Source: an archaeon BMS3Abin16 (GTDB taxonomy: Archaea > Hydrothermarchaeota > Hydrothermarchaeia > Hydrothermarchaeales > SZUA-236). From it: DNA of 34,655 nt. The stretch covers positions 1-34,655 of the forward strand of contig BDTI01000150.1 in NCBI GenBank assembly GCA_002923215.1. Reading direction: 5' to 3'. The notes under the pieces were generated by a model. The model saw only the letters and a list, made by a program, of their open reading frames with translations, was not told the origin of the DNA and ran no database searches. The translations under genes were made by a program, and so were the position numbers. Of this stretch, positions 1 to 34,655 are shown in pieces; position 1 is the stretch's first letter; every line of letters begins with the position of its first letter.

Positions 1-581
1 TACTTGATAAGATCAGTGGCGAGCTAAATTTTTTGGGAGAGGTAGTGGTTGCGATAAAAAACCTGCCCACAATAAAAGAAGGATACACCGTGGTTCTTGC
101 AGGCATGCCAAACGTTGGAAAATCATCGCTTCTCCGGGGGCTCACACCTTCAACGCCTGAGATACAAACCTATCCCTTCACCACAAAAAACATCCTCGTA
201 GGCTACATCCCGGTTGGACCACGTGAAATCCAGATAATCGACACACCCGGCATACTTGACCGCCCGCTTAAAGACCGAAACCCAATTGAAAAACAGGCTA
301 TACTCGCGCTTCGAGAGCTTGCAGACATCATCCTATTCATCTTCGACCCAACTGAAACCTGCGGCTACCCTCTGAACTCGCAAATCAGCCTCTACCGTGA
401 AATCGAATCTAACTTTCAACGTGTAAATCCGATTCTGAACAAATCAGACATTACAAGTGAAAAAACAGCCCGCAATGTTGAATTAGAAATAGGTAAACCC
501 GCGTTGAAATGCTCAGCCATAGAAAACGATGTTGATGAAGTTAAAAACTTTATCCTTCAATCCTCGAAAAACAGACTGTAG
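1..581 (+). CDS. NOG1/Obg-type TRAFAC GTPase, 3' portion (gene starts left of the window)
   Basis: Frame 3 is already open from nt 3 (LDKISGELNFLGEVV...), so nt 33 is not the true start. G1 GMPNVGKSS, G2 YPFTT, G3 DTPG and G4 NKSD occur in canonical order. Stop at 579-581. Confidence 0.75.
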   Translation, partial: LDKISGELNFLGEVVVAIKNLPTIKEGYTVVLAGMPNVGKSSLLRGLTPSTPEIQTYPFTTKNILVGYIPVGPREIQIIDTPGILDRPLKDRNPIEKQAILALRELADIILFIFDPTETCGYPLNSQISLYREIESNFQRVNPILNKSDITSEKTARNVELEIGKPALKCSAIENDVDEVKNFILQSSKNRL

Positions 582-3493
582 TCAGGTTCTTCCATTGGCG
601 CGTATGTGCCCCAGATTACGAAGCTTTCTTTTTTGGGTTTGCCACCAAAGAGTTTTTTGATCTTTATTGTGGCCACATCGGACAGAACCATTACATTGTC
701 AAAATGTCGCTCAAGCTCGTCGGTTGCGAGATCCGGGGCAAGTGTTATAATGCTTGTTACGTTCCACCGTCTGAATCCTTCAACTTGTTTTTTCACAAGA
801 TCCAGGATTTCATCGGTGTTCTGATATTTCGCAAGGTCGGTGTAGATGTCGAGAACTATTCTTTTATGCACATCTTTAGAGTGTTTCTTCACATCAGCCA
901 CAACAGCCTGCTTCACCTGTATCAGGCTTGTTGAGATGATCTGGCGATCGTCTTTTTTGATCGGAATATGCACAACATTGTCTGTGTGCGTGCTCAGGTA
1001 GAGATCGATTATTGAAAGATTCTCTTGACTGTCACTTACGCGGTTGAAAAGATCCAGCAGGTCCTTTGATGACACACGTGACGTTGCGAAAATCCCAGGT
1101 TCACCCTCCTTCAAACCTTCTGAGATAAACATGAAGAGGACATCGTTTTTCGCACGCCGCTCCTCAGTAAGAAACAAGGTGGATGTGCCCTTGATAAACC
1201 CGCCGTAAAGCACTTCATCAAGCTCTTTTACACCGCTTGGAACCACATTTAAGACATCGGCGCGGGTAAATCCATAGAGTGAAAGCCTGGTTTTAACCTC
1301 TGTTTGAACCGCCTCGCGAAGCAGCATGCGGTTAAAAGGAAAGGTGTCTCCAAGCCCCTTAATATAGAGCCGCAGATACTTTAAAAAACCCTTTCTACCA
1401 AGCTCAGCCGCCAGGTTAATTCTCACACCCTCCTCTGTAAAGATGATGTTTTTAAAGAACTCATCGACAGCGACCAAATTTTTAACCAGGCTGCTGTAAT
1501 CCTCAAGGGAGAGAAAAGGCTTTATAGCATCGTTTATCCGGGTGATTGTGGTCTCCAAAAGCTTGGTGTAATATTTGTCAGCCTTGAAATCCTTTGCAAG
1601 CTCAGGAGGGAGGAGCAGGAGTTTTTCGCCAAGGAGTTTTTCAATCTCAGCTTTCACATCATCGTCAAAGGGCACAACGGGCACGCCTCCACGGTTTGCG
1701 GCAGAATCCATTTTATACAGCATTGCAACCGCAGCCGCAGACCTTGCCTTCTCATTCACCATGCTCAGATCAAAGGTTCGCTCAGGAGCATAGAACCTGG
1801 CCTTCTCAAGATCAGGGTCAATGTCCTTATAGGATTCTACAACATCGTCCCACATCTCCTCAAGGACATCTGTTCTGAAAAAATGCCCGGCCACATGGTT
1901 GAGTAGATCCATAATATCTTTTTTCTCAGTATATTCTTTAACGCGGAGTGTTGTTGTGGAATAGACATCGGCGATAAGGATTGTGAAGTATCCGAAAAAG
2001 ACTAGGCCGAAGAATGGGAACTGGGACAGCAAGCCTTCCGGAAACTGAATGTACATAACAAAAACAGTGATAAAGACTCCGAGGCCGGCGAAATAGGAAA
2101 GCGTTGTAATCACACCGCGCTCCATAAGCTCCTCAAAACCTTTGTGCGTGCGCCTTAGAAATGTAAAATAGAAGAGGAAGAAGATGCCGATCAGTGTGAG
2201 CGGGAAAAAGGGGTATCTCCCCAAAAACACATCCAGTGTTGTTGTCTTACCCTGTGTAAGAATCACCAAGAAAAAGATTGTAAAGAACAGGGAAAAAATC
2301 GACACGGCATATCGAGCAATGTCCAGGGGATTGGGTTGCACCTTAACATTCAGGTCTCTCGTGAGCTTTCTAATATCAAGGGTCGTTGTAATATAGAAGA
2401 GCATTGAAAGACCAAAAAAGACACTGAAAAGGATTTTATCCGTAAATTCAAGGGAGTGCCATAAGACAGCGGCAACAGAGAGGATATAGAATGACAAAGC
2501 GAGGTGCGCTGTTATTTCAGCTTTAATATAGTTCCAGTATCCAAGCGTGGTTTCACCAGCAAAAGTCCGTGTATATAGAAATAGGATTGCCGCCGGAACA
2601 AAGAGAACGGCGCTTATCACGAGTGCCCAGCCTGGGATCGCAACGACAATCCCTAAATCTTTGAGTGTGAAATAAAGTGAAATCGAAAGGAAGGCAAGTG
2701 TAAGCGCCGTCGCTATACGGATAGGGTCAATCGGTAGATATGCCTTCCACTTAGGCTGAATAGCAGAAGGATAATCAACCACAAACCTCAGAAATTGGGT
2801 AACCGTTACAATAGACAATGCAGCGTAAAAAAATACATAGTAATAGAGAGCATTTAGCACTTCAGAGGAGGGGACATTAAGGAGGATGAAAATAGTTATC
2901 AAAACAGATATAAGGTACGATAATCCTCCAACGCTCCCTATTAAAAATGGTCTGTATACAAATCCCAAATCAGAATATCGCCCAGATACAATTTTAATTA
3001 AAGAAATAAAGTAGAAGAAAATCACCAATGTGAGGGCGACATAAGGGAAAAGCACTCCAATATTACTTTTAGGGAAAGGGATGCCAGTTAGAAGTTTCAC
3101 TGAAAAAAAGATGAATAACGGAAAACCTGTAAAAGCAGGAATATACTCTCTTTTGAATATGTTCAATGATTTCAATATCGGAGCTGCTAGATTATATGTC
3201 GTTAATAGAACTAAAAAGTGAGATAGTATATCAAAAAAGATGATGAGTATAAGGTATGTGGTCGGTACACCAATTTGAGAGAATCTGTAGAGAAGTAAAG
3301 ACAATGAAATCGCTAAAACTGCCCCCCAATTATTCCCATAAATTATGTTGTCCCAAATCCCGGAATGGATACTCTTTTTCGTTTCTTTCATCATTGCATA
3401 CAAAGCAGCATGGTATTGAGATTGTAAAATGATATATAGAAGGATATATGAAGGGAATTCAAACAAAAATCTGCTATAAATGCCTCCAGCCAT
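557..3493 (-). CDS. Large polytopic membrane protein with a cytoplasmic C-terminal KaiC/RecA-like domain lacking a Walker A motif (DUF835-like)
   Basis: 978-aa ORF. The N-terminal ~530 aa is a series of ~16 hydrophobic 20-25 aa segments. The C-terminal ~230 aa resembles the archaeal KaiC/RadA-type module (GVKELDEVLYGGFIKGTSTLFLTEERRAKN), but the position where GxxGxGK[ST] is expected reads TEERRAKN. The 3' end overlaps the convergent GTPase gene by 25 nt. Confidence 0.55.
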   Translation of the reverse strand: MAGGIYSRFLFEFPSYILLYIILQSQYHAALYAMMKETKKSIHSGIWDNIIYGNNWGAVLAISLSLLLYRFSQIGVPTTYLILIIFFDILSHFLVLLTTYNLAAPILKSLNIFKREYIPAFTGFPLFIFFSVKLLTGIPFPKSNIGVLFPYVALTLVIFFYFISLIKIVSGRYSDLGFVYRPFLIGSVGGLSYLISVLITIFILLNVPSSEVLNALYYYVFFYAALSIVTVTQFLRFVVDYPSAIQPKWKAYLPIDPIRIATALTLAFLSISLYFTLKDLGIVVAIPGWALVISAVLFVPAAILFLYTRTFAGETTLGYWNYIKAEITAHLALSFYILSVAAVLWHSLEFTDKILFSVFFGLSMLFYITTTLDIRKLTRDLNVKVQPNPLDIARYAVSIFSLFFTIFFLVILTQGKTTTLDVFLGRYPFFPLTLIGIFFLFYFTFLRRTHKGFEELMERGVITTLSYFAGLGVFITVFVMYIQFPEGLLSQFPFFGLVFFGYFTILIADVYSTTTLRVKEYTEKKDIMDLLNHVAGHFFRTDVLEEMWDDVVESYKDIDPDLEKARFYAPERTFDLSMVNEKARSAAAVAMLYKMDSAANRGGVPVVPFDDDVKAEIEKLLGEKLLLLPPELAKDFKADKYYTKLLETTITRINDAIKPFLSLEDYSSLVKNLVAVDEFFKNIIFTEEGVRINLAAELGRKGFLKYLRLYIKGLGDTFPFNRMLLREAVQTEVKTRLSLYGFTRADVLNVVPSGVKELDEVLYGGFIKGTSTLFLTEERRAKNDVLFMFISEGLKEGEPGIFATSRVSSKDLLDLFNRVSDSQENLSIIDLYLSTHTDNVVHIPIKKDDRQIISTSLIQVKQAVVADVKKHSKDVHKRIVLDIYTDLAKYQNTDEILDLVKKQVEGFRRWNVTSIITLAPDLATDELERHFDNVMVLSDVATIKIKKLFGGKPKKESFVIWGTYAPMEEPDYSLFFED

Positions 3494-7416: not shown

Positions 7417-9352
7417 ATGGTTGTGCGCTACATATTAGCTGTTTCTGTCCTGCTTCAATTTACTGCAGCTTTTTTAGCTTTGAAACTGATCCGAGTTACA
7501 GGGAGACGCGCGGCATGGATATTGATTGCAGCAGCCATTCTTCTCATGGCTGTCAGGCGCAGCATCACATTATACCGACTAGCCTCTGGACATGTGCTCC
7601 TCCAGCCCGACCCGACTGCGGAATTGGTCGCCCTGGTCATATCGGTGCTTATGGTGGCTGGGATAGCAAAGATTAGTTCGCTTTTTCTCTCCATCAAACA
7701 GTCGGAGGAGGCGCTGCGGGAGTCTGAAGAGAAATTTAGAGGTCTTGCTGAGAAGTCTCCCAACATGATCTTTATCAACATGAAAGGAAGGATCGTGTAT
7801 GCTAATGAGGCTTGCCAGGAGATACTTGGATACAGAAGAGAGGAGTTTTACTCTCCTGATTTTAATTTTCTCAGCTTGATCGCCCCGGAATGCGCGGATC
7901 TAGTTAAGGCAAATTTCGAAAGACATGCAAAGGGGAGGGAGGTGCCTCCAGTTGAATATACGCTTATCACCAAAGAGGGTAAAAGAATCGTGGGGCTGCA
8001 CACGACAAAACTGATACGATACGAAGGCGAAAGTGCTGTTCTCGGCATAATCGCTGACATCACCGAGCGCAAGCGGGCTGAAGAGGAACTGCGCAGAGTA
8101 AACCGGGGACTCAAGATGCTCAGTGCATTCAACCAGACATTGGTGCGCACCATGGACGAGCCCAGTTTACTGCGCAACACATGCCGCGTTATAGTTGAGG
8201 TCGGGGGATATCGATTTGCCTGGATCGGATTCGCCGAATCTGATGAAGAAAAGACTGTGCGGCCGGTGGCACAGGCAGGCTACGAGAAAGGCTATCTCGA
8301 TACAGTACACATTGTTTGGTCAGATACTGAACAAGGCCGCGGCCCCACAGGCACAGCTATCCGCACAGGTAAATCGATTGTTTGTAAAAAGATGCTAACT
8401 GATCCGCGGTATTCTCCATGGCGCTCTGAAGCGAGCGAGCGCGGATATGCATCGTCGATTGCCCTTCCTTTGATTGCTAGAGACCAAACCCTTGGAGCAT
8501 TAAACGTTTATGCAAGAGAGCCGGATGCCTTTGACTCAGAGGAGGTAAAGTTACTAGTGGAACTGGCAGACGATCTGGCCTATGGCATCATGGCACTTCG
8601 CACGCGCGCTGAGCATGAGCGCTCTGAAAAAGCATTGAAAACAGCCTGGCAAGAGCTGAAAAGCCTGGACGAGTTGAAAAGCAACATCATCACAAATGTG
8701 GGTCACGAGCTGCGCACTCCACTGACCATAGCCAACTCTGCCCTGGAGCTTGCAAGTGACGAAGAAGACCCAAAAGAAAAGAACATGCTTTTGAAGATGG
8801 CTGAAAATGCGCTTTCGCGACAGAACATTGTTGTGGAAAATCTCATAGAGGCTGCGAGCATGAAGCCTCATAAGATGAAGTTACCACCTGCTCCAGTGAA
8901 CATGGATCAAATCATAACCTTAGTATGTGATGAATTCATACGTACACTTAAAAAACATGATCTAACGATAGAGCTCAGAGTAGAGAAGGAGCTGCCCCTT
9001 GTTAAAGCGGACAACACAAAACTTAAACTCATCTTGCGAAACCTCCTGGAAAATGCGATAAAGTTCAATAAAAAAGGCGGGAAGATAGTCCTCAATGCAA
9101 GGAAAAAAGATGGCGTGGTAGAGGTCTGTGTGAGAGATACTGGCATAGGTATTCCGAAGGATGGATGAGCAAGAGAAGATCTTTGACCGCTTGTATCAAA
9201 TGGACAGCTCCACAAGCAGGGTCTACGGAGGCATCGGCATGGGGCTTGCAATAGCCAAAACGATAGTTGAAGGATTCGATGGAAAATTGACAGTGTCAAG
9301 TGAACCTGGGGAGGGGAGCAGTTTTTGCTTCACCCTGCCGATCTATGAATGA
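7417..9352 (+). pseudogene. Membrane-bound PAS-GAF sensor histidine kinase, frameshifted inside the HATPase_c domain
   Basis: N-terminal TM helices, then a PAS-like and a GAF-like region. HisKA H-box is NVGHELRTPL and the N-box is LRNLLENAIKF. The G1 box VRDTGIGIPKDG then hits a stop at 9166-9168. The rest of the domain (EQEKIFDRLYQ...GGIGMGLAIAK) continues in the +1 frame as ORF 9161-9352. The junction reads aaGGATGGATGag. Confidence 0.8.
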
Positions 9353-29153: not shown

Positions 29154-29246
29154 TCTGCCAGATATTATACGGCGGCGATATAAATAAGTCCTAGGGATGG
29201 GAGAAGCAAGGGAGTTAAAAAGTGGAAAAATATTGGAGGTTTTTAG

Positions 29247-29849
29247 ATGGGCAATATGGAAGAGTTTCTTAGAGCAATGCAACGCAATACAGATGCTAAA
29301 AAAGACGAATATGGTTCCGAAGCTCTGAACAAGTTTGATAAGAGTCAGTTTGAAAGGAACCTAAATGAACTTCTCAAAGAGATAAACCAGATTCAGGACG
29401 AGGATGCAATGTCTCACCTTCTTGAGAGGCTGTCTTTTCGCCTAAATAAATTTAAGATGTTTGATAAGAGTCTTCAGATAATAAATAAAATTTCAGAAAA
29501 GGAAAGAAAGGAATGGGCATATGTGGAAATTGCAACATCTTTTGCCAGCATCGGCAGATATAACGAAGCTGTTAAATTAATGAAAAAGGCTGGTTCCTCT
29601 CATCACCAATGGCCCCGGATTATCAAATACGCTATTGAATTGCAGGATTTCGATGCTGCTGAAGAAATAGCAAAGAACATAGATTCCCTAGACGAGCAAA
29701 GCAGACAGCTAAAGACAATTCGAGCACATAAAAACCGATACTGTCCGCTTATTAAAGACGATGATGAACTCTTCGTTGTTGTTTCCAATGAACTAGCTAA
29801 AAATCTCAGGCTAAGAAACGGCGATAAAGCAACCATCAGGATATTGTAA
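29247..29849 (+). CDS. Hypothetical protein: helical (TPR-like) repeats plus a C-terminal AbrB/SpoVT-like beta-barrel motif
   Basis: 200-aa ORF in AT-rich DNA, with GGAGG 7 nt upstream of the ATG. The C-terminus DELFVVVSNELAKNLRLRNGDKATIRIL resembles the swapped-hairpin (AbrB/VAT-N type) pattern ..IP.e....l.l..GD.v.i. Confidence 0.35.
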   Translation: MGNMEEFLRAMQRNTDAKKDEYGSEALNKFDKSQFERNLNELLKEINQIQDEDAMSHLLERLSFRLNKFKMFDKSLQIINKISEKERKEWAYVEIATSFASIGRYNEAVKLMKKAGSSHHQWPRIIKYAIELQDFDAAEEIAKNIDSLDEQSRQLKTIRAHKNRYCPLIKDDDELFVVVSNELAKNLRLRNGDKATIRIL

Positions 29850-29886
29850 AGATTTTCAATGAAGTTGTTTAAAGGGAGATGATGAA

Positions 29887-30840
29887 TTGACAAAGACATT
29901 AGAAGAAATTCTCACGGGAGTAATATTGTGTGATGGACAGGGTTATAATAAGAAATGTATGTTCCTAGAAAGGGGGAAGGATGGGAAACCGAAAAAGGGT
30001 AAAGATGGAAAAACGAAACGAACCCTTGATCCATCTGAGTTAAAGAATAAACATGACGGAGAATATAAAGACGAAAAAGATAATTCGGTTGGACTTAAAG
30101 AGTCAGATGTTGAGGATAGGTATCATGTTTATTCTACTGGTAATATGAAACCAGATTTCATGTTTATTATGGAAACGCCGGGAAAAAAAGAGAGTTACAA
30201 GAAAAAGAACAACGAGAATGAATTTGATAAATATGTCAGCAATGGTAAACTGATAAATCATGACAATCTTGAGGGATATGCAAAATTAAGGCAGAAGAAT
30301 TTTCTCAAATGGATATTAAAGCCGTCCGATAAAGACAATATTAAAGACAATATAATTGGCATTGTCAACCAAGAATTACTTGATAATCAAATTACACTAA
30401 ACTTAAAGGATAGACAGCCAGAAAAGAAAACGTTTGAATTTTTTGACTATGTTCATGTGACAGACGTGCGAAAATGTGCAGACGGAAAAACGAGTATATG
30501 CTTCAAGAAGTTTTTGAAAAAAGAAATTGAAATTTTGAATCCAAAACTCATATTTTGCTTTGGTGGTGAGGCGTGGAATCAAATATTTAAGGGATATGAA
30601 TCAGTAATTAGAAACGAAAAATGTAATGACGAAAAAATTAAAGAAATTGAAAAAGGAGGCAAAATCACCAAAATTTCTGACGTTCACGGCTATCTTTTCA
30701 AATTTAAAATTAAAGATGATGCAGATTCGATTTATATCCTTCCTTGCATCCATTTTAGCGGCACTGCACGCAATTCAGCACCCAGAAACAGTTACATAGA
30801 TTATTTCAAAAAAGGGTTAACAGAATATAGGGGAAAATAG
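29887..30840 (+). CDS. Divergent uracil-DNA-glycosylase superfamily protein (UDG-like 1)
   Basis: TTG start with GGGAG 8 nt upstream. FMFIMETPGKKE aligns to family-4 motif A (hhhhGE[AG]PG..E, here with G->M). HVTDVRKC aligns to the T-N-x-x-K-C segment. LIFCFGGEAW follows, and LPCIHFSG aligns to motif B (HPS-like). There is a Lys-rich N-terminal insert. Confidence 0.5.
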   Translation: MTKTLEEILTGVILCDGQGYNKKCMFLERGKDGKPKKGKDGKTKRTLDPSELKNKHDGEYKDEKDNSVGLKESDVEDRYHVYSTGNMKPDFMFIMETPGKKESYKKKNNENEFDKYVSNGKLINHDNLEGYAKLRQKNFLKWILKPSDKDNIKDNIIGIVNQELLDNQITLNLKDRQPEKKTFEFFDYVHVTDVRKCADGKTSICFKKFLKKEIEILNPKLIFCFGGEAWNQIFKGYESVIRNEKCNDEKIKEIEKGGKITKISDVHGYLFKFKIKDDADSIYILPCIHFSGTARNSAPRNSYIDYFKKGLTEYRGK

Positions 30841-30846
30841 GAAAAA

Positions 30847-30869
30847 TGACCTCTCTAACCTTCTATGGC
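30847..30869 (+). repeat. Direct repeat copy A, a gene 5' fragment (MTSLTFYGGVGYFN*)
   Basis: ATGACCTCTCTAACCTTCTATGG is identical over 23/23 nt to 33794-33816. It starts 6 nt after the UDG-like 1 stop. As an ORF it terminates after 14 codons. Confidence 0.9.
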
Positions 30870-30933
30870 GGTGTCGGCTATTTCAATTAACTTTTTATAC
30901 GGCATTAACATCAACATATATGTAGGTGATAGC

Positions 30934-31128
30934 ATGTATGTTCGAACCACTATAAAGCTAAGGGAAGACATATATCAGCGCCTCAAAAAAGAGGTTGGAG
31001 CGCGGGGGATGTCTGAAAAAATAAATAAAATACTTGAAGAGACCCTTATCAAGAAGAAGAAAACCCTTTATGGGACCATGCCAAAAGTTGATACAGGCGA
31101 TTTGAGGGACCACGAAGACCGGATGTGA
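30934..31128 (+). CDS. vapB: Ribbon-helix-helix antitoxin (VapB-type)
   Basis: ATG 30934 has AGGTG 5 nt upstream. MYVRTTIKLREDIYQRLKKE is an RHH beta-strand plus helix. The stop is 1 nt before the vapC ATG. Confidence 0.7.
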   Translation: MYVRTTIKLREDIYQRLKKEVGARGMSEKINKILEETLIKKKKTLYGTMPKVDTGDLRDHEDRM

Positions 31129-31129
31129 A

Positions 31130-31516
31130 ATGATGTTTATCGACTCCTTCGCATGGATTGAATATTTTATGGGCACGGAGAGGGGGAGAAAAGTAAAAAA
31201 AATAATCGAAGGCAATGTAATCACATATACATCGCCAACAGTTATTGCAGAGATCTTCTCAAAGTCGGTTAGAACCGACGGCCAGGATAAAGCCAGGGAG
31301 AGAGTGGATTTCATCGTTGACCGATGCGTGCTCATCCAAACAGACGAAAACATTGCTGTTGAAGCTGGAAGATTACACGGGGAGATGAAGCCGAAGATCA
31401 AGGATTTCGGGCTGGCCGACGCCTTTATCCTCGCATCGGCACGGAGCAAAGGAGCCAAAGTGGTGACTGGAGACCCCCATTTCAAAGACCTAGATGATAC
31501 AGTGTTTTTAGATTGA
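31130..31516 (+). CDS. vapC: PIN-domain toxin (VapC)
   Basis: FIDS (first acidic residue), AEIF, LADAFILASA and VVTGDPHF give the four conserved PIN acidic positions in order. Confidence 0.8.
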   Translation: MMFIDSFAWIEYFMGTERGRKVKKIIEGNVITYTSPTVIAEIFSKSVRTDGQDKARERVDFIVDRCVLIQTDENIAVEAGRLHGEMKPKIKDFGLADAFILASARSKGAKVVTGDPHFKDLDDTVFLD

Positions 31517-31562: not shown

Positions 31563-32246
31563 TTAGAGACAATTCTCTTTCTTAACAATCTGCATAAGCT
31601 CGCCGAGGTCATCAATCTCGTAATCTGCCCCAGAATCTATGCCCCCCTTCTTAGCCCCATATCTTGCAAAGGCAGTCTTCATGCCAAGGCTTTTGGCTCC
31701 TTGGATGTCTCTCTCTGGCCAGTCCCCGACCATGAGAACCTCTGAGGGTGCAAACCCCAGCTCTTTCAGTGCCTTTTCGAAGGGAAGCCCCTCGGCTTTG
31801 GTCTTACCGGTGTCCTCAAAGGCCACTACAACATCAAAGATGTGATGAAGCTTAAGGGGGCACAATCTTATTCAGGCCTGCAGCCGCGGGGCATCACTGA
31901 CCACGCCCAGCTTGATCCCAATCTTGGACAGCTTGGTGAGTGTCGGAGTGACATGAGGAAAAGGCTCCAGGTAGGCCAGTTTGGTCTTCCTGTAGACAGC
32001 TATGGCATTGCCCAGGATCTTATAATCAATACACCCCAGGACTTCTTTGAGGAAGTCATCAAAGATGTGCTGGTATTCTATACCGCGTCTCTCATAGAGC
32101 TCGTAGAGCTTTCTGATGGCATCATCCCGCTCCATATCGAGGCCTGCATCTATCATGGCGTCCACAGCAGCCTCCACGCTCATCCGCTTCATTTTGCCGA
32201 AATCTATGAGGGTGTTATCTAGGTCGAAGAGCACCCCTTTTATCAT
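31563..32246 (-). pseudogene. HAD-superfamily hydrolase interrupted by an in-frame TGA
   Basis: Motif I FDLDNTL, motif II GVVSDA, then ...PRLQA-TGA-IRLCPLKLHHIFDVVV... in the same frame (stop at 31872-31874). Motifs III/IV KTKAEG and MVGDWPERDI follow. Start is taken as MIKGVLFDLD at 32246. Confidence 0.75.
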
Positions 32247-32333
32247 CAAGTAGAATAGTGTCATCAGAAGGTAAATAGTTTTTCGAACCCTGTCCTCACA
32301 AAAATAAAATACTAGGAACCTCAACGGGTCTTC

Positions 32334-32369
32334 ATGGCGGCGCTCACCTTCTACGGAGGCGAGAGATAA
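32334..32369 (+). repeat. Degenerate copy B of the gene 5' fragment (MAALTFYGGER*)
   Basis: ATGGCGGCGCTCACCTTCTACGGAGGC matches copy A at 19 of 27 nt. The differences in the LTFYGG codons are synonymous third-position changes (CTA/CTC, TAT/TAC, GGC/GGA, GGT/GGC). It lies in the divergent promoter region of the HAD gene. Confidence 0.7.
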
Positions 32370-32402
32370 ATAAGATATAGGTGGGAGAGAAAGGAGTTAG
32401 CA

Positions 32403-33791
32403 ATGTTTAAGCATGAATGTGAGATGTATCCACTCGTGAAGGACTTTTTGATTAAGAAACAAGAATGTAATGAAGAAAAAACGGGGTATACCTCTGAAAA
32501 AAAATGTTTAACTGATGAGGGGAAAACCCTGTCTTTGGCGCTTTTCGGGAGAAGTATTGAACCGGATGTTTACGGTATCGATGACACTAAAGGTATAATC
32601 TATCTTGCAGAAGGTAAAATTACCCACGAAGGTAGATCTTTTGATGAGGCGATTGTTCAGGGTGTGACTTACCAAAGGTTCTCCCACTATGTTTATGTCT
32701 TCTTTCCAATAATAGAGGATGCGGATATTCTAAAACATCTAAAAGAGCTGTGTGAAGAATATGGCTTAGGACTTCTGTTAATAGATTACCAGCGACAGGT
32801 CGAGGAAATAGTTACTCCAAAACTTTCAAAATTTTACGGAGGGAATAACTGGTCTATTACTCGTGATAACATCAAAACAGCAGAAGAAAAAATAACAAGA
32901 TTATTATTGTTAGGTGGAGTGGGAAAAATAGGGCAGGTTCATTTGCCCATTTTAAGGGACATCTGCTATCTACTGGGCGAAAAAGTAAGTTGGAATAATG
33001 AAGAGACGTTTATTATTTTTTTAAGGAAGCATACGTTATTAGATAAATATCGGAGTCAAGGACTAAATGGGAAAGAAAGTAGTCTGAATTTACATGATGG
33101 GAGTGTTAAAAATCCATTGTTATTAAAGAAGATTAAATCGCGTAACAATTCTTCTAGAGGTGCTACTGTTGAAGAGGTATCGGACACCTTTAAAAAATTA
33201 ATCACGGAGACTCTTAACACGTTAGAATATCTTGGCTTGCTAAAAAGAGATAAAGAATCGATGAATCTAACTCCCCAAGGAATTAACTTCAGAAACGTTA
33301 TTAGAGGTGATAATAAGCAGAATCTATACAGAAAAGAAGTTGTCGACACAATTCAGAGAACATTTATTTCTATTCTGCTGGCCAAGGAAGAAGTTGAAGA
33401 AGAAATCCGGAAGATGTGTGAGATAATCAAAAGTGTAGAGCCACAACCGAGATTTAGATTTTGGTGCGATAAATGCGATTATAAAAAAGACTGGACAGTG
33501 AAAAAACTAGAAAAGGAAAAGTTATTAAATATTTACAAAAAATATGGAGAAATACATTGCCCGATATGCAATAATAAAAAGGTTCCTCAGCCGTATAACT
33601 TATTAATGGCGGCTAAGGATTTGGAAAACACTTATCGTTTGGAAGTTTTGCTGGAAGAAACAAAAATAATCGAAAAAGCACGGTCTTTTGACCAGCTTCC
33701 GCCTGAAATGAAGAGAAAATTTAGAATTAATGATCCAAAGCGAACCACTTACTGGTATCTTGGAAAAAACGCCCCTTATTTATCCGAGTAA
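32403..33791 (+). CDS. PD-(D/E)xK nuclease-like / winged-helix / zinc-ribbon protein
   Basis: GGAG lies 7 nt upstream of the ATG. The N-terminus has IEPDVYGIDDTKGIIYLAEGK (D...ExK spacing typical of restriction-endonuclease-fold proteins) followed by QGVTYQ. Mid-protein, LNTLEYLGLLKRDKESMNLTPQG looks wHTH-like. The C-terminus has CDKC-x26-CPIC. Confidence 0.5.
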   Translation: MFKHECEMYPLVKDFLIKKQECNEEKTGYTSEKKCLTDEGKTLSLALFGRSIEPDVYGIDDTKGIIYLAEGKITHEGRSFDEAIVQGVTYQRFSHYVYVFFPIIEDADILKHLKELCEEYGLGLLLIDYQRQVEEIVTPKLSKFYGGNNWSITRDNIKTAEEKITRLLLLGGVGKIGQVHLPILRDICYLLGEKVSWNNEETFIIFLRKHTLLDKYRSQGLNGKESSLNLHDGSVKNPLLLKKIKSRNNSSRGATVEEVSDTFKKLITETLNTLEYLGLLKRDKESMNLTPQGINFRNVIRGDNKQNLYRKEVVDTIQRTFISILLAKEEVEEEIRKMCEIIKSVEPQPRFRFWCDKCDYKKDWTVKKLEKEKLLNIYKKYGEIHCPICNNKKVPQPYNLLMAAKDLENTYRLEVLLEETKIIEKARSFDQLPPEMKRKFRINDPKRTTYWYLGKNAPYLSE

Positions 33792-33793
33792 TC

Positions 33794-33816
33794 ATGACCT
33801 CTCTAACCTTCTATGG
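33794..33816 (+). repeat. Direct repeat copy C, which forms the first 8 codons of UDG-like 2
   Basis: 23/23 nt identical to 30847-30869 and 2947 bp downstream of it. It starts 2 nt after the stop of ORF 32403-33791. Confidence 0.9.
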
Positions 33817-34655
33817 TGTTGACAAAATTAAAGCAGTTTACAGTTGCGTTAAGTGCGAAGAGTGTAAATTACGAGATAAGAATAGTAATGTAGATTTTGC
33901 ATTTTATAATAAAAACTGTGACCAGAAGCTAATGCTTGTCCTTCAAAACCCAGGAATTGAAAAAGGAACTAAAAAAGAGCTAAGGGCGTTAGAGCATGAT
34001 CTTATAGCTGCTGCTGATTTTCAAACGCTATTAGAGTTACATATGTATGGAATGGCTCGATGGCTTTTTATAAATAATAAAGAATTTTCCAGAGAATTTT
34101 TTAAGATATTAAAAAAACCCTTCACCGAAGAATATTTTTTTGGGAGCTATGGTTTATTAGAACTTAAGGATATAGTCAACGACCCTAGTAAAATTGATAA
34201 AATTAAAGGATTTATTAGCCAGCTCTTCGATGATTTTTATATAACTGATTTAGTAAAATGCAGAACCGAAACTCAGAGCTTAAAATGGAACAAAAAGTGC
34301 AATCATCTTAAAAATTGTTACGATCAGTTTTTAAAATATGAGTTAGAAGCTGTACAGCCAGATGTAATTTTTGTCTTCGGCACTAGGGCTTGGAAGCACT
34401 TCTTTTATGAAACGAAATCTAATAATCCTTTAATGATAATAAATCCGAGTCCAACCAAACCCGATAATATTGAAAAATATCGGAATGTGTCAAAAGCTCA
34501 TGGAATTTTATTTGAAAGTGGCCTTTTTGAAGAGAAAAAAATATGGATTATCCCATTAGGCCACTTCAGCCAAGCTATTTACAATTTTTACTTAAGGGAT
34601 AGTTATCACTGTTATCTAAAGAAGGCCGTGTCTAAACTAAAAAAAGTTGGAGTTG
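33794..34655 (+). CDS. Divergent uracil-DNA-glycosylase superfamily protein (UDG-like 2), 3' end outside the window
   Basis: My own translation is open for 287 codons to the window edge. The ORF is absent from the supplied track, presumably because it has no stop. N-terminal CVKCEECKL (family-4-like Cys cluster), LMLVLQNPGIEKG (N-P-G as in MUG/SMUG motif A), YITDLVKCR, VIFVFGTRAW and IPLGHFSQ (motif B-like). It is collinear with UDG-like 1. Confidence 0.55.
   Translation, partial: MTSLTFYGVDKIKAVYSCVKCEECKLRDKNSNVDFAFYNKNCDQKLMLVLQNPGIEKGTKKELRALEHDLIAAADFQTLLELHMYGMARWLFINNKEFSREFFKILKKPFTEEYFFGSYGLLELKDIVNDPSKIDKIKGFISQLFDDFYITDLVKCRTETQSLKWNKKCNHLKNCYDQFLKYELEAVQPDVIFVFGTRAWKHFFYETKSNNPLMIINPSPTKPDNIEKYRNVSKAHGILFESGLFEEKKIWIIPLGHFSQAIYNFYLRDSYHCYLKKAVSKLKKVGV

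Follow-up and report, generated by a model that had tools for sequence, protein, structure and literature searches.

Uracil-DNA glycosylase-like genes in a strain-variable cassette array of an uncultured deep-sea archaeon

The window analyzed here is a 34,655-nucleotide stretch of DNA from an uncultured deep-sea archaeon (contig BDTI01000150.1), and our subject is a pair of genes within it, UDG1 and UDG2, whose products resemble uracil-DNA glycosylases (UDGs). Both genes lie between prs, which encodes PRPP synthetase, and a gene for a 602-amino-acid (aa) metallo-beta-lactamase (MBL/RMMBL) protein that is RNase-J-like in appearance (GBE18027.1 from archaeon BMS3Abin16); the flanking genes also include archaeal LonB. 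The stretch from prs to the MBL gene consists of four cassettes in tandem, which hold gene A with UDG1, VapBC with a HAD-family gene, an open reading frame (ORF) for a 462-aa protein, and UDG2. We recognize the array by copies of the start of the MBL gene at 30846, 32334, and 33794, together with the true start of that gene. A contig from ENA, which we call L001 (adding 19886 to its coordinates gives those of the window), differs from the window by 34 single-nucleotide polymorphisms in 14.8 kb, none of which is in A, UDG1, the 462-aa ORF, or UDG2. The features of the array are as follows.

29164 to 29188, + strand: degenerate left boundary of the first cassette, after the prs stop codon, with a partial copy of the MBL repeat, TTATACGGCGGCG, and then a TATA-like ATATAAATAAG.
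29247 to 29849, + strand: A, 200 aa, TPR-like with a short C-terminal beta-beta-alpha-beta tail (from weak TPR matches, AlphaFold2, and Foldseek).
29887 to 30840, + strand: UDG1, 317 aa, with a TTG start codon preceded by GGGAG (from Pfam's UDG family, AlphaFold2, Foldseek, and the alignment to 4zbx).
30846 to 30878, + strand: repeat copy 1, ATGACCTCTCTAACCTTCTATGGCGGTGTCGGC, the right boundary of the A and UDG1 cassette, equivalent to MBL codons 1-11 (MTSLTFYGGVG).
30865 to 31516, + strand: VapB-like antitoxin (E = 9e-4) and VapC toxin (PIN, E = 6.5e-15), in the second cassette.
31563 to 32324, - strand: HAD-family hydrolase within the array (Pfam HAD_2, E = 6e-27 for the L001 copy, which is intact).
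32334 to 32376, + strand: repeat copy 2, ATGGCGGCGCTCACCTTCTACGGAGGCGAGAG (32334 to 32365), and TATA-like ATAAATAAGAT, the left boundary of the 462-aa cassette.
32403 to 33791, + strand: 462-aa orphan protein in a cassette of its own (called partner B in the preliminary description of this locus).
33794 to 33819, + strand: repeat copy 3, ATGACCTCTCTAACCTTCTATGGTGT, between the 462-aa ORF and UDG2, which gives UDG2 its start codon and first eight codons (MTSLTFYG).
33794 to 34655, + strand: UDG2, 289 aa, a single-gene cassette; the last two codons and the stop codon lie past the end of the window, and the full length is from L001.

The direct repeats that close each cassette correspond to the first 26-38 nucleotides (nt) of the MBL gene (ATGACCTCTCTAACCTTCTAYGGCGGTGTCGGCGAG, coding for MTSLTFYGGVGE) and always start at the ATG. 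The core pattern of the repeat has three matches in the window and none in 100 shuffles. These repeats are also found at 14777-14825 of L001 and in the related contigs L004, L023, L024, and L026. The junction at repeat copy 1 has matching junctions in L005, L024, and L026, and the VapBC pair also lies 3' of repeat copies in L024 and L026. Another junction, of the repeat with (G)ATAAATAAG, is common to the 462-aa cassette and to cassettes of L024 and L026. This TATA-like element, placed straight after the repeat and followed by a GGGAGA-rich leader, is present at 29180 and 32366 in the window, near 740 in L024, and near 7690 and 8395 in L026; the element and leader together may be a cassette-borne archaeal promoter.

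UDG2 does not have this leader. It does not have its own start codon either: its coding sequence is fused in frame to the att-like repeat, that is, to the duplicated MBL start MTSLTFYG. UDG2 lies directly 5' of the MBL gene, with overlapping stop and start codons (TAATG), and may be transcribed together with the 462-aa ORF from that ORF's cassette leader. The window's own MBL start (MNPSVSLTFYGG) resembles the internal repeat copies less than the MBL starts of sister strains do, which suggests that cassettes come with their own att-like copy. The GC content is 0.38 for A, 0.33 for UDG1, 0.36 for the 462-aa ORF, and 0.32 for UDG2; it is 0.49-0.51 for the flanking LonB and prs genes, and the HAD gene inside the array is host-like (0.49). 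We rejected a tRNA-type integration site, as the window contains no tRNAs.

UDG1 and UDG2 are 27% identical across 256 alignment columns (BLASTP, E = 1e-15), and both exceed the gathering score (24.3 bits) of Pfam's UDG family (PF03167), with 31.8 bits for UDG1 and 43.8 bits for UDG2. The preliminary description had matched four pairs of motifs in the two proteins (IMETPG/LQNPG, TDVRKC/TDLVKC, LIFCFGGEAW/VIFVFGTRAW, and CIHFS/LGHFS) and had laid out a 200-aa ORF, a 37-nt gap, and the 317-aa UDG1; the motifs are indeed present and collinear, and the coordinates agree with ours. It had also named two observations that would speak against its view, a lack of similarity between UDG1 and UDG2 and motifs that lie off the active site. 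The BLASTP match and the alignment to a solved structure, given next, go the other way on both counts.

An AlphaFold2 model of UDG1, built from a 58-sequence alignment, has a predicted template modeling score of 0.81. When this model was compared to solved structures with Foldseek, the best matches were family-4 UDGs: first 4zbx from Sulfolobus tokodaii (also 4zby; E = 5.7e-6, probability 1.0), and then 1ui0 from Thermus thermophilus and 1l9g from Thermotoga maritima, with UdgX, TDG, and MUG after them. Similarly, when the family profile was compared to the sequences in PDB, only family-4 UDGs matched (4zbx, E = 8e-11). In the alignment of the profile to 4zbx, the N-terminal CxxC pairs with Fe-S cysteines, (M/L)QNPG pairs with GEAPG, vTDlvKCr pairs with IT-N82-VVKCR, and IPLxHFS pairs with FPTYHPA. 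This pairing places the motifs that UDG1 and UDG2 share in the active site. The Lys-rich insert of UDG1 that had been reported is real as well: it spans residues ~28-85, is confined to the UDG1 subclade, and is poorly modeled, with low values of pLDDT (the predicted local distance difference test). Within the insert, at 29970-30016, a 24-nt tandem repeat codes for GKDGKPKK/GKDGKTKR.

The clade shares with the family-4 enzymes (1ui0 and 4zbx) not only the fold but also the CxxC...C...C pattern of Fe-S cysteines, the (T)-x-x-x-K-C strand motif, and the His of motif 2. The putative Fe-S ligands are C21, C24, C156, and C175 in UDG2 and C15, C24 (a C-x8-C arrangement), C197, and C205 in UDG1. In family 4, motif 1 is GE(A/G)PG, with an EG doublet; in the UDGa of T. 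thermophilus, N80 forms a bidentate hydrogen bond with N3 and O4 of uracil, H155 stabilizes the leaving group, and N89, in the RPPxN motif, positions a water (PMC5387724). Across 58 members of the clade, the position of the uracil-binding Asn (N80 in T. thermophilus, N82 in S. tokodaii) is Asp in 57 and Glu in the other one; it is D193 in UDG1 and D152 in UDG2. Motif 1 becomes (M/L)QNPG, with a QN doublet in 53 of the 58, or METPG, as the ET doublet is limited to the UDG1 subclade. HP(S/A) becomes H(F/M)S: the catalytic His (H289 in UDG1, H257 in UDG2) is present in 57 of 58 members, but the next residue is Phe or Met instead of Pro. Motif 3 (RPPxN) is absent, and the clade carries 60-90 extra residues. 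The Lys of the K-C pair is also found in 57 of the 58, and HG and one Pro are invariant. Thus, UDG2 has the motifs that are typical of the clade (LQNPG, TD152LVKCR, and GH257FS), and UDG1 has METPG, TD193VRKC, and H289FS.

The earlier claim that both copies replace the canonical family-4 catalytic residues needs to be narrowed. It holds for the Asn at 80/82, which became Asp, for RPPxN, which was lost, and for EG, which became QN in UDG2 and ET in UDG1. However, UDG1 retains the Glu of motif 1, and both proteins retain the His. Since several of the residues that give family 4 its specificity for uracil are replaced, the main substrate is probably not uracil. The NCBIfam models for family 4 also missed both proteins, which scored about a quarter of the cut-off or less (32.4 and 32.6 bits versus 125.3 for TIGR00758; 27.2 and 33.5 bits versus 250 for NF040953). 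As judged from their sequences, UDG1, UDG2, and their relatives form a rare clade that is derived from family-4 UDGs but is not itself a family-4 UDG.

The family became visible through an exhaustive profile search. Word-seeded searches found just three relatives of UDG1, one of UDG2, and one of A. When we scanned 1.84 billion representative sequences with a HMMER profile, we found 133 clusters with E < 1e-10, including 49 with E < 1e-30, and most of these proteins have 240-270 aa. Motif-seeded scans identified members in two of 185,579 species genomes (both are haloarchaea) and at 15 metagenome loci; in a collection of viral contigs, there were no matches to the family (motif-seeded) or to the core of the repeat. 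All of the members that could be assigned to an organism are archaeal (the lineage of this metagenome-assembled genome and the two haloarchaea), and the rest are on metagenome contigs. In each other's lists of family hits, UDG1 and UDG2 rank just 58th and 80th, so they were acquired independently. Local duplication was rejected as their origin, as they are not mutual closest relatives.

The preliminary description had proposed a search for recurrent partner genes near homologs. In an all-against-all comparison of 17 further loci, we found none beyond the synteny of close relatives. Some of the neighbors are a type I restriction-modification (RM) operon (L015), a type IIG RM enzyme and a DUF4062-HEPN protein (L010/L011), Nmad3 (L007), a WYL regulator (L016), and tyrosine integrases (L008/L009/L022). 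Also, on an unrelated metagenome contig of 405 kb (L021, 6988-8373 and 9689-10357), a distant UDG-like member lies ~1.3 kb downstream of an orthologue of the RNase-J-like MBL gene, which may be a coincidence or a wider link between this MBL gene and the UDG-like family.

Near-identical strains carry different cassettes in the same slot, including different UDG alleles, VapBC, McrBC, and orphan genes. We compared these contigs:

L004: prs, repeat, UDG1-type gene alone, repeat-MBL.
L023: UDG1-type gene immediately 5' of the MBL gene.
L024 (sister strain): repeat, VapBC, repeat, small ATPase fragments with McrB and McrC, repeat-MBL.
L026: five repeat-delimited units, the last of which is A and a UDG (P0007) before the MBL gene; a Csa3-like regulator and a third UDG-like gene, which is a weaker match, are present as well.

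The third UDG-like protein of L026 (3238-4179, - strand) has 313 aa, matches Pfam's UDG family below the threshold (E = 0.006), and ends in ...ILPVYHPSS.

One mosaic is between L001 and L026. The leader and A are 97.9% identical at the DNA level over 682 nt (equivalent to 29208-29888 of the window). The similarity ends ~25 nt past the stop codon of A, and the UDG genes align over their last ~110 nt only, at 81% identity. The A proteins are 97.5% identical, while the adjacent UDG1 and P0007 are 36% identical. Further mosaicism of the UDG genes is seen in L029, L004, and L023. That A is nearly constant where the UDG breaks off implies that the glycosylase is the hypervariable, recombining part. 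The preliminary description had viewed the locus as a modular system with swappable partners. Modularity is borne out, in that a cassette of A and a UDG1-type gene is present in four contigs, but the part that is swapped is the glycosylase and not its partner: what behaves as a module is the cassette, along with the allele of the glycosylase, rather than a sensor or effector partner. The hotspot is also a natural experiment, with near-identical strains that differ only in the cassette (UDG alleles, McrBC, or orphans).

We considered whether UDG1 and UDG2 might be ordinary enzymes of base-excision repair, that is, divergent family-4- or family-5-like UDGs that take deaminated or damaged bases out of the host's DNA and merely happen to be in a variable region. 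This would fit with the nearest solved structures and hidden Markov models, which are of family-4 repair UDGs, with the conserved Fe-S cysteines and catalytic His, and with the motif-1 Glu of UDG1. But the scores are far under the family-4 cut-offs in NCBIfam, the proteins no longer have the uracil-binding Asn or motif 3, the distribution is extremely patchy, and the GC content is foreign. Repair enzymes would also not be expected to be hypervariable and mosaic between near-identical strains, or to share their slot with McrBC and VapBC. We consider a role in ordinary repair to be quite improbable.

Instead, we favor the view that UDG1 and UDG2 are stand-alone immunity glycosylases, similar to Brig1, that remove a virus-specific modified base; we put the probability of this at a little over one half (roughly 0.55). 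Brig1, Brig2, and Brig3 are antiviral glycosylases from the UDG superfamily that act as single-gene defenses (PMC11078745; bioRxiv 10.1101/2025.10.29.685425; PMC13160076). Brig2 is on an integron cassette, and Brig3 forms an operon with BapA (bioRxiv 10.1101/2025.10.29.685425; PMC13160076). UDG1 and UDG2 resemble Brig1 in having the UDG fold, with the family-4 UDG of S. tokodaii as the best structural match, which is also reported to be that of Brig1. As with all three Brig proteins, the genes encode ~250-320 aa and are found in AT-rich, mobile, defense-rich DNA; as with Brig2, they are borne on cassettes; and as with Brig3-BapA, UDG1 has an accessory upstream gene. However, A is TPR-like and is not a hydrolase of the BapA type. 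Also, the clade has four Fe-S cysteines, while the Brig1 sequence does not have these. It differs from all three Brig proteins in having a large insert of helices that separates motif 1 from the TD motif, in that its activity and role in defense are predicted, and in being archaeal where its members can be assigned; Brig2 and Brig3 were compared with UDG1 and UDG2 by description only.

The case for immunity glycosylases is built from the fold, the conserved His in a re-tooled pocket, the extremely patchy distribution and the turnover of alleles, and the co-location with McrBC, RM, and toxin-antitoxin systems. The homology, the fold, the mapping of the motifs, the cassette repeats, the variability between strains, and McrBC in the slot of a sister strain are what we observe; the activity as a glycosylase, the class of substrate, the defensive role, the role of A, and the mechanism of integration are what we infer. 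The glycosylase would flip out and excise a non-canonical base that is found in viral but not in host DNA, and the resulting abasic sites would block replication of the virus or would be cut by the host's apurinic/apyrimidinic endonucleases. The substrate would probably be a substituted pyrimidine of the cytosine type (4-amino) rather than uracil. This suggestion stems from the family-wide change of Asn to Asp together with the extra helical insert of ~60-90 residues over the pocket. The N204D mutant of UNG, which is a cytosine glycosylase, provides one analogy for the change. In another, the Watson-Crick face is contacted in Brig1 by an acidic residue (E147) at a place that Asn usually takes in UDGs (PMC11078745), and the Asp of UDG1 and UDG2 would be its counterpart. 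By these analogies, the target is probably a modified base of the cytosine type. The UDG genes would be carried as cargo into an insertion hotspot, located at the MBL start codon, with each cassette bringing or regenerating the initial 26-38 nt of the MBL gene. UDG2 would be a one-gene cassette that is translated from the duplicated MBL start, and UDG1 would travel with A.

Several considerations weigh against this explanation. The argument for a cytosine-type substrate rests on analogy, and the acidic residue of Brig1 is at a non-identical position in the alignment. The motif-1 Glu that UDG1 retains might allow some residual activity on uracil. When the family profile was compared to Brig1 with hhalign, the probability of homology was just 0.06% (E = 0.76), using a Brig1 sequence that was machine-read from a PDF and might contain small errors; given this result, we rejected membership in the Brig1 family. 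Searches of PADLOC and PHROGs gave no match for the UDG-like proteins and, along with NCBIfam, no informative match for A, UDG1, UDG2, or the 462-aa protein. Roughly one in three of the family's loci has ordinary neighbors (FeoB, an iron repressor, an AMP-ligase, or DUF429). The scans of genomes, metagenomes, and viral contigs were seeded from a 14-sequence subset and were limited by motif, so they can miss divergent members. We know of no virus of this archaeon that has modified bases. Finally, for every member of the clade, a role in defense or as a glycosylase is a prediction from sequence and gene context.

The role of A bears on another possible explanation. TPR-like helices had been noticed in A, and these are supported by the helical repeat in the AlphaFold2 model and by TPR-type matches, although all of the matches to Pfam's TPR families are below threshold. 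The model, which was predicted from a two-sequence alignment, has a pLDDT of 78; the helices at residues 30-165 are confident and the tail is not (pLDDT of 44-62). Foldseek found only TPR proteins (E = 0.02-0.08). In contrast, the C-terminal AbrB/SpoVT motif that had also been suggested did not hold up. Neither full-length A nor its last 36 residues matched PF04014 at E <= 1, the tail is modeled with low confidence, and Foldseek gave nothing but TPR proteins. The only match in Pfam for the last 36 residues is TOBE (E = 0.1). We rejected A as an AbrB- or MazE-like protein, as this had no support from hidden Markov models or from confident structure.

Orthologues of A are found solely 5' of UDG1-type genes: in L005 (69% identity), L026 (97.5%), and L029 (98%). 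With L001, this gives four contigs with the pair, all from close relatives, and the gap between the two genes is 37-75 nt. A is missing from L004 and from 17 more distant loci. In L026, repeats on both sides indicate that A and the UDG form one cassette, and L004, which has a UDG1-type gene but not A, indicates that A is dispensable for carrying this gene. A is probably a regulator or an adaptor that is not essential.

Alternatively, A could form an obligate two-component system with UDG1, as could, by analogy, the 462-aa protein with UDG2; this corresponds to the modular view of the preliminary description. The upstream protein would then detect infection or hold a potentially genotoxic glycosylase in check, as in a sensor and effector or an antitoxin and toxin. 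A does precede a UDG1-type gene within one repeat-bounded cassette in four contigs, TPR-like repeats are a common fold for binding partners, and Brig3-BapA is a precedent for operons of a glycosylase and an accessory gene. Also, a UDG with Asp in place of Asn could in principle attack normal cytosine, and would then need to be controlled. On balance, we think that an obligate pair is unlikely. The UDG1-type gene of L004 is alone between two repeats; A is 97.5-98% constant beside a UDG that is 36% identical, which is unexpected for an inhibitor and enzyme that co-evolve tightly; the 17 other loci do not have a recurrent neighbor; and an AbrB/MazE domain was not detected in A. For UDG2, the boundary of a cassette splits it from the 462-aa ORF.

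That boundary also argues against the earlier designation of the 462-aa ORF as UDG2's partner: the repeat lies between the two genes and provides the start codon of UDG2. The 462-aa protein is a singleton cluster with no match in Pfam, PADLOC, NCBIfam, or the sequences in PDB. By eye only, it has a PD-(D/E)xK-like PDVYG...LAEGK near its N terminus and a zinc-ribbon-like CDKC...CPIC at its C terminus. We rejected its annotation as a PD-(D/E)xK nuclease with a zinc ribbon, as comparing the isolated N- and C-terminal parts to Pfam, and searching PDB, gave nothing significant.

The positions of the UDG-type genes within the arrays suggest yet another explanation, which is that the proteins serve the cassettes and not host defense, for instance by making lesions or nicks at the target that promote insertion or homing. 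UDG-type genes adjoin the MBL start or the att-like repeat in L004, L023, L026, and L001, and none of the genes called within 10 kb on either side of UDG1 (on a 99.8-kb contig) belongs to an integrase family. But cassettes with the same boundaries and no UDG also exist (with VapBC, the 462-aa ORF, McrBC, or a 196-aa protein), and most members of the family elsewhere are not beside an MBL gene or such repeats. To our knowledge, glycosylases do not have strand-transfer chemistry. We see very little chance that this is their function.

The array itself invites comparison with integrons. Like an integron, it is a tandem, low-GC array, at one site, of cassettes that mostly have one or two genes and have repeat-marked boundaries; the content varies by strain, the cargo is enriched in defense and toxin-antitoxin genes, and some cassettes do not have their own promoter. 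Unlike the imperfect palindromes of the attC type, the repeats at the boundaries copy the start of the MBL ORF directly, from the ATG onward, and no integrase of the IntI type is among the genes within 10 kb of UDG1. Another difference is that several of the cassettes open with the common TATA-like ATAAATAAG. Tycheposon islands, in which integrative elements leave arrays of att repeats, are another type of island that the array between prs and the MBL gene can be likened to.

A broader proposal, which we consider possible but put forward tentatively, combines the clade with this platform: an integron-like archaeal cassette platform that works by a different mechanism, with UDG2 expressed as a leader fusion, and with the first archaeal Fe-S immunity glycosylases among its cargo. 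Small circular or imported cassettes would recombine with the initial ~30-38 nt of the MBL gene, and many of them would carry a TATA-like promoter of their own. Each insertion would restore the start codon of the MBL gene, so that UDG-like, McrBC, VapBC, and orphan genes would be stacked in tandem. The recombinase would be encoded at another site and act in trans, and UDG2 would be expressed with the duplicated MTSLTFYG leader fused to it. The junction of a circular cassette would then read ...GGCGAG / AGATAAATAAG...

Defense glycosylases from the UDG superfamily, of which some are cassette-borne and one has an accessory gene, are an already known kind of system. What is new here is the sequence family, the Fe-S scaffold with the switch to Asp, the archaeal hosts, and the array of cassettes targeted to a start codon. 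The antiviral glycosylases Brig1-3 and Dag1/2 were recognized in 2024-2026, and the tested examples are all bacterial; if UDG1 and UDG2 are immunity glycosylases, the clade would extend this kind of defense to archaea and to a family-4-derived scaffold with an Fe-S cluster. The switch from Asn to Asp predicts the class of substrate, and enzymes that excise modified bases are useful reagents for mapping DNA modifications. The array hints at a form of cassette capture in archaea that is aimed at the start codon of a gene.

Two other genes in the window are of note. The HAD gene within the array contains an in-frame TGA at 31872-31874, where L001 has TGG (Trp), which indicates either pseudogenization at the level of strains or a polymorphism. 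And far from the array, at 557-3493 (- strand), is a gene for a 978-aa protein that matches Pfam solely in its C-terminal part, with a KaiC-like ATPase domain; the ~750 N-terminal residues are unannotated, and the gene is partly in a stretch of low GC content (0.35-0.42).

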